Positions 2,537 to 14,022 of a stretch of 64,000 nt of DNA are shown piece after piece (positions within the stretch are counted from its first letter, which is position 1; each line of letters starts with the position of its first letter). The notes beneath the pieces are model-generated. The model did not search any database. It had not been told where the DNA came from and was given only the letters and a program-made list of their open reading frames with translations. Source of the DNA: a virus (Duplodnaviria > Caudoviricetes); IMG/VR virus record IMGVR_UViG_3300026094_000002; one strand, written 5' to 3'. The translations under genes were made by a program, and so were the position numbers.

Positions 2537-2586
2537 AAAAAATCCGGTCTTGCTAAACTTAGATGAAGCCTAACATAGACCGGATT
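2537..2586 (-). terminator. Probable intrinsic terminator overlapping a weak promoter (TTGATT-17-TAGGCT, 2567-2595)
   Basis: 10-bp inverted repeat at 2541-2550 and 2577-2586, followed on the minus strand by a T-run. Confidence 0.5.
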
Positions 2587-2603
2587 GCAAATCAACAATT
2601 ATT

Positions 2604-2795
2604 TTAATTATTATTAACGGGGAGTGCCTTTTCTACTTCAGCAACAGTTGCACGAGCAACCTCAAAGTTTGCTGCAGTTACAGTTTCATAATATGAACGC
2701 AACCACTCTGGCTGAATGAATCTGGACACAGAATTATAATTTTTCTCAATGTTGTTGAGAAGTTCTTGTGTTGAAAAATGTTGAATGTAACTCAT
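2604..2795 (-). CDS. Hypothetical 63-aa protein behind a ROSE-like leader
   Basis: Strong AAGGAG RBS; helical, Ala/Glu-rich C-terminus. Confidence 0.7.
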   Translation of the reverse strand: MSYIQHFSTQELLNNIEKNYNSVSRFIQPEWLRSYYETVTAANFEVARATVAEVEKALPVNNN

Positions 2796-2866
2796 AATTA
2801 TCTCCTTTTGGTAAGCGAGTTATAATTGGCAAACCTATAATAGCGTTTGACAACTGATTTTATTTA
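2796..2866 (-). promoter_or_regulatory. TAAATA promoter, upstream hairpin and ROSE-like SD-sequestering hairpin
   Basis: TAAATA at 2861-2866; stem 2825-2834/2845-2854; CUC(G)CUU-ACCAA-AAGGAG at 2802-2819. Confidence 0.55.
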
Positions 2867-2933
2867 TCATTTTATTGTGCAGTGCAAAATAAATTTAAGA
2901 TCTGAGAATTTTACTAACATCATAAATATTAAG

Positions 2934-3454: not shown

Positions 3455-3739
3455 ATGTTTAATTTTATTAAACGCCTGTTTGGTGGAAATACACCAACAG
3501 AATCTCAGCAAGTTGCATCACAAAAACCTGCTGAAAAGAAACCAGCCACGCGGTCAACTACTAAAAAAACCACTACTGGTTCAACTAAGAAGGCAACTGC
3601 CACCAAAACTAATACTGCTGGTGCCAAGAAGACCGCGAGTAGTACCAGCAAGACTGGCACCAAAAAGAGTGCAACTACTGGAAGAAAAACCAGCACCACA
3701 GGTACCAAAAAGACAACTACTAAAAAGTCGAACACTTAA
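3455..3739 (+). CDS. Lys/Thr-rich basic protein (histone H1-like low complexity)
   Basis: TAAATA at 3432-3437, AAGGAGG RBS, MFNFIKRLFG followed by repeated KKT/STT units. Confidence 0.75.
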   Translation: MFNFIKRLFGGNTPTESQQVASQKPAEKKPATRSTTKKTTTGSTKKATATKTNTAGAKKTASSTSKTGTKKSATTGRKTSTTGTKKTTTKKSNT

Positions 3740-10837: not shown

Positions 10838-11626
10838 ATGTACTTGTCATTTGATTTAATTTCAGATTTACATCTTGAAACTCGAGATGGCTTTAACTGG
10901 GATGGACAGCCAACCAGCCAATGTTGTGTGGTGGCTGGAGATATTTCTAAAAATATTCAGGATACGGTTTCTTGTCTTACCCATTTGTCCCAATGCTACA
11001 AAAAAGTCGTTTATATTGATGGTAATGCAGAGCATCGTTGGAATTATTCTGATCTTGGTTCAAGTTATCAAACCTTAGTTGAAGAATTGCAAAAAATACC
11101 AAATGTTATTTTCCTGCAAGATAACATGGTCATAATCAATGGTGTTGCGATAGTCGGTACCAATGGCTGGTGGACATACGACTTCAATCCCAACATGGAT
11201 TTTGAAAACTCAGTAAAATACGCTGTTGATAGATATGACATTAATGTTGGTGATGCAATGACACTACGTGCTATGGCAATTAATGATGCGAATTATCTTG
11301 CAAACACTGTCAACCGGTGTCAGACAATGCCAGATATTAAGAAAATTGTTGTTGTTACACATACTGTTCCTCACGAAATGATTACAAAACACGATGAAGA
11401 ATTTGACGATGATCTTCAGTATAATCTGTTGGGCAATTCATATATTAAACAAATTTTAGAACAAGACACGGAAAGAAAAGTTGATACGTGGTGCTTTGGA
11501 CATTACCACAAAGATGTTGATTCTGTTATTAATAATATCCGATATGTTAATAACTGCTTGGGTGAAAAGGGATCAACTTGGGCCAAGTCTGTTTATCACC
11601 CAAAGCGTATTGAAGTAATAATTTAA
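10838..11626 (+). CDS. Calcineurin-like metallophosphoesterase
   Basis: SDLH, AGD, GNAEH, VTH and FGHYH motifs; TAAATA 6 nt upstream. Confidence 0.85.
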   Translation: MYLSFDLISDLHLETRDGFNWDGQPTSQCCVVAGDISKNIQDTVSCLTHLSQCYKKVVYIDGNAEHRWNYSDLGSSYQTLVEELQKIPNVIFLQDNMVIINGVAIVGTNGWWTYDFNPNMDFENSVKYAVDRYDINVGDAMTLRAMAINDANYLANTVNRCQTMPDIKKIVVVTHTVPHEMITKHDEEFDDDLQYNLLGNSYIKQILEQDTERKVDTWCFGHYHKDVDSVINNIRYVNNCLGEKGSTWAKSVYHPKRIEVII

Positions 11627-11937
11627 TCTGCTTCGGGCTCAATTTTAATATTTAAAGGATACCCGTTGCTACGTGCACTTACTGTAATCTCAATGCCCTT
11701 TTGTTCTGCAATCTCATATGGAAGAACTGCCACACACGCAGATCCCGCTTCATGAACTTCTTCAGTAATCTTTTGAGCAGTAGCCTCAGTATAATTAAGA
11801 TGATTCATCAAACTTTCAACAACAAAATCATATGCAGTACTATTGTCATTAATATAAATTAGTTGGTACATTGGTGGCTCACGCAACTCTGTATTAATTT
11901 CTACTTTTGTCTCGCTTGATGCGGATGATGTTGTCAT
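11623..11937 (-). CDS. clpS: ClpS N-degron adaptor
   Basis: EPPMYQLIYINDNST, VHEAG, YEIAEQK and GYPL. Confidence 0.9.
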   Translation of the reverse strand: MTTSSASSETKVEINTELREPPMYQLIYINDNSTAYDFVVESLMNHLNYTEATAQKITEEVHEAGSACVAVLPYEIAEQKGIEITVSARSNGYPLNIKIEPEAD

Positions 11938-11961
11938 TTGTTTCCTCGTAAATTAAATTAG

Positions 11962-11988
11962 TAGAGCAGGGTCTAAGACCCTGCTCTA
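11962..11988. terminator. 12-bp perfect hairpin between hsp20 and clpS
   Basis: TAGAGCAGGGTC-TAA-GACCCTGCTCTA; only a weak T tract follows. Confidence 0.6.
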
Positions 11989-12006
11989 TAGTTTGCAAGA
12001 GACTGA

Positions 12007-12444
12007 TTATCCCTTTTGGGTAATTGCAATAGACTTAGGCTTCATTGTCTCAGGGACAATACGCTCTAAACTAATAGTAAGAATTCCATTCTCAATAACC
12101 GCATTATTTACCTCTACATATTCGGCAAGCGTAAATGAACGCGTGAAGTCTCTTGATGAAATACCATGGTAAAGATATTCAATATCTTCGTTTTTGTTTT
12201 CCTGTCTACCTGTAACAGTTAGGTGTCCTTCATGGTATTCAATATCTATCTCTTCTTTATTGAAACCAGCAACTGCCACCTGAATTTCATAACGATCTTC
12301 ATCAACACGAACGATGTTATATGGTGGATAATTGCCATTGGAACCAGCGGTATCAACTTGATCCATTACGCGATCAAAAATTCGATCCATTCCAATTGTA
12401 TTTCTGTAAAACGGTGATAGGTCTAATGAAGTAATTTTAGTCAT
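12007..12444 (-). CDS. Small heat shock protein (IbpA-like Hsp20)
   Basis: IGMDRIF, YPPYNI, VAVAGF, LYHGISSRDF and NGILTISL. Confidence 0.95.
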   Translation of the reverse strand: MTKITSLDLSPFYRNTIGMDRIFDRVMDQVDTAGSNGNYPPYNIVRVDEDRYEIQVAVAGFNKEEIDIEYHEGHLTVTGRQENKNEDIEYLYHGISSRDFTRSFTLAEYVEVNNAVIENGILTISLERIVPETMKPKSIAITQKG

Positions 12445-12515
12445 TGTTGTCCTCCTTTATTAAGCAAGTGACTAATAGTGCAACCCAAGTTGGCGTTGCA
12501 CATGTATTTATTATA
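12445..12515 (-). promoter_or_regulatory. hsp20 leader with TAAATA promoter and ROSE-like RNA thermometer
   Basis: TAAATA at 12505-12510; hairpin 12478-12501; CUU(G)CUU-AAUA-AAGGAG at 12452-12468. Confidence 0.7.
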
Positions 12516-12532
12516 CACTAATTACGGTTCAT

Positions 12533-12772
12533 TTAAAAGGGCTGATTCTTTTTTTCATCGTTTAATTTTTTAAGCCAACGCTTTCTCGCAGCGGCTTTTT
12601 TAGCCTTTCTTTCTTGGCAGGGCTTTTCATAGAATTCATGTTTCCGAACATCTTTTAGCACACCAGATTCATCAACTTTTTTCTTAAACTTTTTAAGTGC
12701 ACGTTCAAATTGTCCGTCACGAACCTCTACGCGATTTCCTTTAATCTTTATTTCGTCAGTTTTCTTTCTCAA
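12533..12772 (-). CDS. rpsU: Ribosomal protein bS21
   Basis: [19 protein letters not shown]...RKHEFYEKP...KKAAARKR; TTG start. Confidence 0.9.
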
Positions 12773-12816
12773 TTGTCAATACCTTTGAGTTCCTTTAATT
12801 ACATTTATGTGTTGTT

Positions 12817-14022
12817 TTAGAAATTGTAAAATTTCTTATCAATTAAACTTGCTGGTTGTTCAACAAGTTCTTTATTTACAATAATTTTGTTAATATTGTT
12901 TTCTCTATACCGAACCATTTCAAACATATGTGGGAGCAATGATTTTTCTATGTTTGAATGCAACCCACGGGCACCTGTTCCACCGACCAGCGTTTTATCA
13001 GCGATCTCATCAAGTGCATCTGGAGTAATTTCAAGTTCAATATCTTCTTGAGCAAATAATGTTTTGTATTGATTAACTAAATTTCCATCAACTTCTGTTA
13101 ATATTGATATTAATGCACCCTTATCTAATTCTGTTAGCGGGACAACATTTGGGAATCTTCCCACAAATTCAGGAATCATTCCAAAACTAACAAGATCGTC
13201 TGGGGTAACCTTGCCTAAATCCACTTCTTCCGACGGAGAGACAATGTGTGCAGTAAAACCAGATGCTGTTCCTGATTGACGGCGACGGACAATATCACCC
13301 AGACCGATAAACGCTCCACCTGCAATGAACAGTATGTTTGACGTATCAATATCAACTGTTCCCGAGTTTGGATTTTTTCTACCACCCACTGGAGGCACCC
13401 GGCATACAGTGCCTTCTACTATTTTTAACAGTGCCTGTTGAACGCCTTCGCCAGAAACATCTCTAGTGATAGAAGAGCTTTCGCTTTTTCTGGCAATTTT
13501 GTCAATTTCATCAACAAAAATAATGCCATTTTCACATTTTTTAACGTCACCATCAGCAGCAATTAATAATCTTGAAACCAAACTCTCAACATCATCACCT
13601 ACATATCCTGATTCGGTTACTGAGGTAGCATCAGCAATAGTAAATGGAACATCCAAATACTTTGCTACAGTTTGTGCTAATAATGTTTTTCCTGAACCAG
13701 TGGGACCAATCATTAAGACATTTGATTTTGCCAAATTATTTTCATTTGTATTTGAAATTCTTTTATAGTGGTTTGCAATTGCTACACTTAAGACAATTTT
13801 GGCCCAATCTTGTCCAAATACATTTTTATCAAGAGTGTTTTTAATTTCTATTGGATTAATATTAACACTATCAGAAGAACCATTAATTTGTTCTTTTAAT
13901 AAATCTTGGCACATTACAACACATTCATTGCATATACCCACAGAATTATTAACAATAAGTTTCTGAACTTCAGATTCTGGGCGATTACAGAAATTACAGA
14001 TATGAGGAGAATTATCAGTCAT
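12817..14022 (-). CDS. clpX: ClpX AAA+ unfoldase
   Basis: CNFC..CNEC zinc finger, GPTGSGKT, GYVG, DEIDK, RDVSGEGVQQALLK and GARGL. Confidence 0.95.
   Translation of the reverse strand: MTDNSPHICNFCNRPESEVQKLIVNNSVGICNECVVMCQDLLKEQINGSSDSVNINPIEIKNTLDKNVFGQDWAKIVLSVAIANHYKRISNTNENNLAKSNVLMIGPTGSGKTLLAQTVAKYLDVPFTIADATSVTESGYVGDDVESLVSRLLIAADGDVKKCENGIIFVDEIDKIARKSESSSITRDVSGEGVQQALLKIVEGTVCRVPPVGGRKNPNSGTVDIDTSNILFIAGGAFIGLGDIVRRRQSGTASGFTAHIVSPSEEVDLGKVTPDDLVSFGMIPEFVGRFPNVVPLTELDKGALISILTEVDGNLVNQYKTLFAQEDIELEITPDALDEIADKTLVGGTGARGLHSNIEKSLLPHMFEMVRYRENNINKIIVNKELVEQPASLIDKKFYNF

Follow-up and report, generated by a model that had tools for sequence, protein, structure and literature searches.

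A phage gene for a small phasin-like protein preceded by a PhaR-type operator and a ROSE-like mRNA leader

The upstream region of a gene for a 63-aa protein in a large phage combines a palindrome that matches the operator of PhaR with an mRNA leader resembling ROSE elements. The gene is best read as a phasin-like gene under PhaR control and ROSE-like translational control, a reading to which we assign a probability of about 0.5. Each of the two switches is of a known kind. PhaR represses phasin genes until PHB sequesters PhaR (PMC6201568, PMC12542648), the short ROSE leaders of Pseudomonas melt with heat (PMC3669281), and IbpA represses its own mRNA via the 5'-UTR, an activity for which R93, R97, K98 and an aromatic residue at position 34 are needed (PMC10474464). 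Additionally, PHB granules are coated by both IbpA and phasins, and a phasin has chaperone activity (PMC11067923, PMC10646324). The literature searched described no phage gene superfamily that combines a PhaR operator with a ROSE-like leader, and it yielded no publication about phasins of phages, phage genes under PhaR control or ROSE-type leaders of phages.

The window, i.e., the whole 64-kb stretch of DNA that was analysed, is part of a large phage, and the 63-aa protein was found on a 305-kb contig. Terminase, SSB and ligase genes lie in the window, which also encodes Hsp20, ClpS, ribosomal protein S21 and UvdE (Table 1 gives the features discussed below). The clpX-like, rpsU (S21), hsp20 and clpS genes form a block on the minus strand (11623-14022). 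A 94-aa Lys/Thr/Ala-rich protein with a histone-H1-like composition (3455-3739) is encoded directly 3' of an ATAAATA element and a strong SD, and related phages carry its gene in the same place. Two further contigs, one with an identical 63-aa protein (L001:15383-20192, outside the window) and one of a related phage (L136:9960-12709), have genes for ClpP, CsgF- and CsgG-like curli secretion proteins, FecR and SufE, and L001 additionally encodes a CHASE2 nucleotide cyclase. The DNA contigs compared were strain variants only, and the cultured phages, plasmids and GTDB genomes searched contained no homologues of the 63-aa protein.

Table 1. Coordinates and main characteristics of the features in the window.
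Feature	Position	Strand	Characteristics
ATAAATA, putative T4-late-type -10 promoter element	2861-2867	minus	TAAATA invariant in orthologues
PhaR-type palindromic operator	2872-2892	.	core TGCACTGCA at 2878-2886, AT-rich arms
Hairpin I	2824-2855	minus	invariant bulged G2844; no SD inside
Hairpin II, ROSE motif UCGCU over SD	2802-2819	minus	CUC-G-CUU pairs with AAGGAG, bulged G2816
63-aa helix-turn-helix protein, phage-specific superfamily, phasin-like	2604-2795	minus	ATG 2795, 63 codons, end 2604
Long conserved hairpin and U run, probable terminator	2537-2586	minus	stem of ~20 bp, conserved ends, variable interior, 7 loci
Phage Hsp20 (IbpA-like), candidate binder of both leaders	12007-12444	minus	Pfam HSP20, E 3.7e-21
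Sister ROSE-like leader of phage hsp20	12445-12510	minus	Rfam ROSE_3 RF02523, 35 bits, E 1.2e-5

The layout given for this leader in a preliminary description of the DNA, with TAAATA, a 5' hairpin, CUC-G-CUU over AAGGAG and the ATG, is present in full on the minus strand. TAAATA is common by itself (48 copies in the window) and also stands ahead of the ROSE-like leader in phage hsp20 genes. Hairpin I consists of an 11-bp lower stem with one U.C mismatch (2850/2829), the bulged G, a 3-bp upper stem and a 3-nt loop. Hairpin II likewise contains a bulged G; its UCGCU fits the U(U/C)GCU motif (PMC3669281), and its CUCGCUU and GGAG are invariant across orthologues. The folding energy of the leader is unremarkable by itself (z = -0.5 to -1.4), so that the evidence for the leader lies in conservation and covariation rather than in stability.

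All orthologue leaders found keep both hairpins, with compensatory changes. Among nine orthologue leaders, the pairs of hairpin I swap between C-G, U-A and U-G and between G-C and A-U, and the bulged G and its flanking core are fixed. When aligned by fitting to the model, a procedure that leans toward the model, hairpin I has four pairs altered on both sides and a covariation score above those of all 500 shuffles and all slid controls. Of 88 distinct hsp20 leaders, 84 have the same bulged-G core, which 1.5% of shuffles show. A covariance model finds the leader in every orthologue tested. That the structure of the leader is conserved is practically certain, and control of translation by it is highly probable.

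The preliminary description had likened this leader to that of the phage hsp20 gene, and the likeness is borne out both by the layout of the two leaders, which is the same, and by a covariance model made from 35 hsp20 leaders of other phages and run unfiltered over the whole window. The hsp20 leader scored 36.2 bits and that of the 63-aa gene 28.9 bits (E ~2.5e-4), the only two matches at E < 0.2; the next reached 16 bits. These scores are partly circular, as hairpin II was in the pattern that gathered the training set, and hairpin I constitutes the independent evidence. In line with this result, a scan for YYGCTT-N3-8-AGGAG, of the kind suggested earlier, hit just these two leaders in the 64 kb. 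The match of the hsp20 leader to RF02523 lies below the gathering score of 43 bits; at the gathering threshold, Rfam gave nothing in the window, nor did any ROSE model match 20 phage hsp20 loci. For the leader of the 63-aa gene, ROSE_3 gave no match at E <= 10, and there was no relevant Rfam match. The hsp20-leader model also matches the Salmonella ibpB leader weakly (L179:1345-1426, 20.9 bits, E 0.056), a known ROSE-type region.

Beyond the window, the ROSE-like architecture precedes hsp20 in more than 100 viral contigs, dnaK in one, and genes for 71-78-aa proteins of unknown function. The dnaK case is a 628-aa DnaK-like gene with TAAATA and a two-hairpin leader on a viral contig (L080:6285-8168, minus strand), and its leader has the highest score to the hsp20-leader model seen, 56 bits. 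Because a ROSE-like leader also precedes this phage dnaK, a shared translational regulon is well supported.

Whether temperature is a real input to the leader is an even question. Predicted accessibility of the SD increases with temperature in all orthologues, and the opening predicted from 15 to 42 °C is slight in the leader of the window and differs widely from one orthologue to another. Such thermodynamic predictions are poor for the non-canonical pairs of ROSE elements, and the orthologues start from very different baselines, so the predictions do not decide thermosensing. The leader may instead be mainly a protein-binding operator, on whose bulged-G hairpins phage Hsp20 or host IbpA would repress translation until titrated by unfolded proteins or granule surfaces, with temperature secondary; this is a credible alternative to which we give appreciable weight. 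An operator for an sHsp would explain the invariant bulged G of a hairpin without an SD at least as well as temperature does, the Y-G(bulge)-C / G-R core of hairpin I being invariant in 9/9 orthologue leaders and in the 84 hsp20 leaders mentioned above. Additionally, phage Hsp20s mostly keep the residues that IbpA needs for self-repression, i.e., Y/F34 (99/99), R93 (89/96) and R/K97 (88/96), and the Hsp20 in the window has the equivalents of Y34, R93 and R97. However, K98 is mostly lost in phage Hsp20s, including the copy in the window, the other residues are perhaps conserved for structural reasons, and a literature search turned up no publication that ties the bulged G to recognition by IbpA. 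Protein binding to the leader would agree with what the preferred reading proposes for PhaR and phasin.

In the preliminary description, the two leaders formed a pure phage thermoregulon, with the 63-aa protein as a heat-stress factor (co-chaperone or holdase) and no tie to PHB. The shared and conserved ROSE-like leader partly supports this proposal, as do the recurrence of the leader ahead of phage hsp20 and dnaK and the fact that short ROSE-like ibpA leaders of Pseudomonas are proven thermometers (PMC3669281). A generic heat-stress role is less likely, since a PhaR-type operator points to PHB status and a phasin-like role. A pure thermoregulon, which we now consider improbable, leaves unexplained a conserved and unique operator that accompanies this protein superfamily and no hsp20 gene.

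This 21-nt operator, directly upstream, had been missed in the preliminary description. It matches both TGCRNYGCASMA, the PhaR consensus of B. diazoefficiens (PMC6201568), and the 21-nt S. meliloti motif WNWD2NYGCRNYGCRNH2WNW (PMC12542648), and nothing else in the window matches either. As the mean chance expectation is 0.5-0.6 matches per 64 kb, one match in the window is no surprise, and the evidence for the operator lies in its position, its identity to a phaP1 site and its conservation among orthologues. The chance of a match within 30 nt of a given promoter is ~2e-4. The palindrome shares 17 of 21 positions with the phaP1 site of S. meliloti, which was validated by EMSA, and is the best match to that site in the window. 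In all 10 orthologue loci examined, its core precedes TAAATA by 11-12 nt, and in L133 and L218 it is inverted, an independence of orientation that is as expected for a dimeric repressor. Judged by these sequence features, the operator is likely bound by PhaR.

The operator also travels with the protein type. In metagenomes, a pattern of DNA features only (operator, TAAATA, bulged-G hairpin, ROSE motif and SD) led in 33/33 cases to a member of the superfamily of the 63-aa protein, recognised by a match to either of two family HMMs at E <= 0.005, and in none to hsp20. Among viral contigs, the operator and leader pattern occurred at 20 loci, two of them cut by contig ends and two weak, all ahead of small proteins of the 63-aa type and none ahead of hsp20. 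These counts include repeat samplings of the same phages and cover at least five divergent subfamilies. Conversely, the operator was found in 0/120 leaders of a set dominated by hsp20, the hsp20 leader of the window has no match to it, and a search of 185,579 prokaryote genomes with the combined pattern gave three matches, all outside the protein family. Many family members have a ROSE-like leader and lack the operator (L029, L067, L098 and L139-L164); thus, of the two controls, the RNA leader is the more widely shared in the superfamily. A very divergent 75-aa Ala-rich helical protein, with E 0.025 to the superfamily profile, has the same operator and leader (L309:2644-2868 and L318:2565-2789).

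The palindrome might bind a regulator other than PhaR, be it phage-encoded, a MotA-like activator or one acting on the gene at 2937, which is divergent; in that case, the 63-aa protein would be unrelated to granules. The assignment to PhaR comes from a sequence match, and the palindrome sits between divergent TAAATA elements (2866 on the minus strand, 2923 on the plus strand). A general middle-promoter box would recur, however, whereas the palindrome is unique in 64 kb, flips its orientation at a fixed distance from TAAATA, and accompanies this type of gene in unrelated contexts. Three near-complete phages carrying the protein family yielded no PhaR-like gene, which is consistent with a regulator supplied by the host. 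Another binder is an unlikely explanation. As for the hairpins, that they are constitutive elements of mRNA stability or dosage, or resemble ROSE elements by chance, is very improbable: the folding z-score is weak and hairpin I of Pseudomonas was proposed to stabilise mRNA (PMC3669281), but neither stability nor chance accounts for an invariant, bulged anti-SD, covariation, and recurrence ahead of three unrelated gene families.

The reading of the gene as phasin-like depends further on its product, which, as noted earlier, has no recognised motif: Pfam, PHROGs and NCBIfam give no match, and matches in the Atlas are unnamed or generic. Eight relatives with 48-84% identity were found, seven of them traced to the same gene neighbourhood, and the differences among the genes concentrate at third codon positions. 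The AlphaFold model comprises two helices, residues 9-24 and 30-57, the first amphipathic (p 0.002-0.025) and the second weakly so. The structural search that had been suggested returned generic helical hairpins: Foldseek (PDB, BFVD) and VIA-align gave common helical hairpins only (best Z 7.1), with no phasin among the matches listed. Profile searches of PDB sequences gave no meaningful matches.

Sequence profiles place the protein in a phage-specific superfamily. When the profile of the 63-aa family was compared with 2,557 small ORFs, proteins that share the leader ranked directly after the family itself, and profiles built without this family (leave-out HMMs) recovered an orthologue at E 1e-7 and the protein of the window at E 3e-4. 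Direct HHalign comparison with the larger family is weak (P 0.06 and 0.01), and the link runs through bridging subfamilies. The superfamily contains at least 926 clusters, and the 120 listed are all unnamed or hypothetical. The three named Atlas clusters closest to an 89-aa relative, Phasin_2, PHB_acc and PHA_synth_III_E, are all families of PHA granules; their scores of 0.83-0.87 serve as leads only, and in the first of these clusters 13% of the members bear the Phasin_2 name. Phasin_2 is also the most frequent Pfam match among 47 superfamily members (five members, best E 0.003), at 15-18 bits in relatives that all stay below the Pfam cut-off of 24.9 bits. A significant match to C. necator PhaP2 was not obtained, and a ROSE-like leader looked for near phaP2 was not found. 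The sequence link to phasins is suggestive only; since no phasin cut-off was passed and PhaP2 did not match, the protein is named phasin-like and not phasin. Binding to PHB granules is slightly favoured, and the protein would then probably be a coat for the host's stored carbon granules.

Downstream of the gene, the long conserved hairpin with its U run probably acts as a terminator and makes the 63-aa gene a separate unit; a simple terminator scan does not list it. The arrangement around it was seen in the window and at L005, L127, L130, L133, L135, L137 and L138. The U run abuts the ATG of the next gene, which encodes an 88-aa probable lipoprotein, and leaves no space for an SD (2537-2595, minus strand). 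At 8/8 loci checked, a TTGA-type -35 lies just upstream of the hairpin and a -10-like hexamer follows 17-18 nt later inside the 5' arm. The hairpin may terminate the upstream mRNA, and the next gene may have its own sigma70 promoter, giving a transcript unable to form the hairpin.

Taken as a phasin-like gene with PhaR and ROSE-like control, the locus would be a self-contained unit with two control layers. At the level of transcription, host PhaR would bind the palindrome immediately ahead of the phage promoter, which it would block; once the host contains PHB granules, PhaR would be sequestered and the promoter would open, as for bacterial phaP genes. At the level of translation, the two bulged-G hairpins form a short mRNA leader, the second of which masks the SD, and this leader would open on warming and/or when aggregates or bare granule surfaces titrate an IbpA-type sHsp away. 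The product, a minimal amphipathic two-helix phasin-like protein, would coat PHB granules or act as a holdase, and the phage would thereby manage the carbon store of its host during infection.

Each part of this scheme has a counterpart in bacteria. The leader resembles the Pseudomonas ibpA leaders of the ROSE_3 type (RF02523; PMC3669281) in the imperfect pairing of U(U/C)GCU with the SD, in the unpaired G and in the conserved 5' hairpin ahead of the SD hairpin. Unlike them, it is phage-borne, follows TAAATA instead of a sigma32 promoter, has an AU-rich hairpin I, precedes a gene that does not encode an sHsp and falls below the RF02523 gathering score, and its role as a thermometer is putative. 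As in the PhaR-phaP circuits of B. diazoefficiens and S. meliloti, an operator with AT-rich arms overlaps the upstream promoter region of a gene for a small, partly amphipathic helical protein; this likeness to phaP genes is absent in some other subfamilies. In contrast to those circuits, the site is single, lies on a phage and stands ahead of a ROSE-like leader, and the product is not demonstrably a phasin. With Phasin_2 (PF09361) the protein shares its small size and a predicted all-helical make-up of two helices with a turn, the first helix amphipathic and the second weakly so, and several relatives give sub-threshold matches to that family. Its 63 aa make it shorter than the known phasins, however, and it matches neither Phasin_2 nor TIGR01841. 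Finally, as in the self-repression of IbpA (PMC10474464), an sHsp gene has a ROSE-type leader and its product retains most of the residues concerned; the differences are the loss of K98 and a putative target that is a second phage gene.

In its widest and rather speculative form, the proposal is that many large aquatic phages carry minimal phasins wired to host PhaR and to a leader responsive to sHsps or temperature, with which they sense and take over PHB granules, the bulged-G hairpin being the recognition element for IbpA-type proteins. If the preferred reading is right, phages read the stored-carbon status of their host through the host's own repressor and supply a granule protein, and a large unannotated superfamily gains a testable function. 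The natural variants of the two-hairpin leader would also offer a way to ask why ROSE-like elements keep their 5' hairpin and what RNA feature IbpA recognises.
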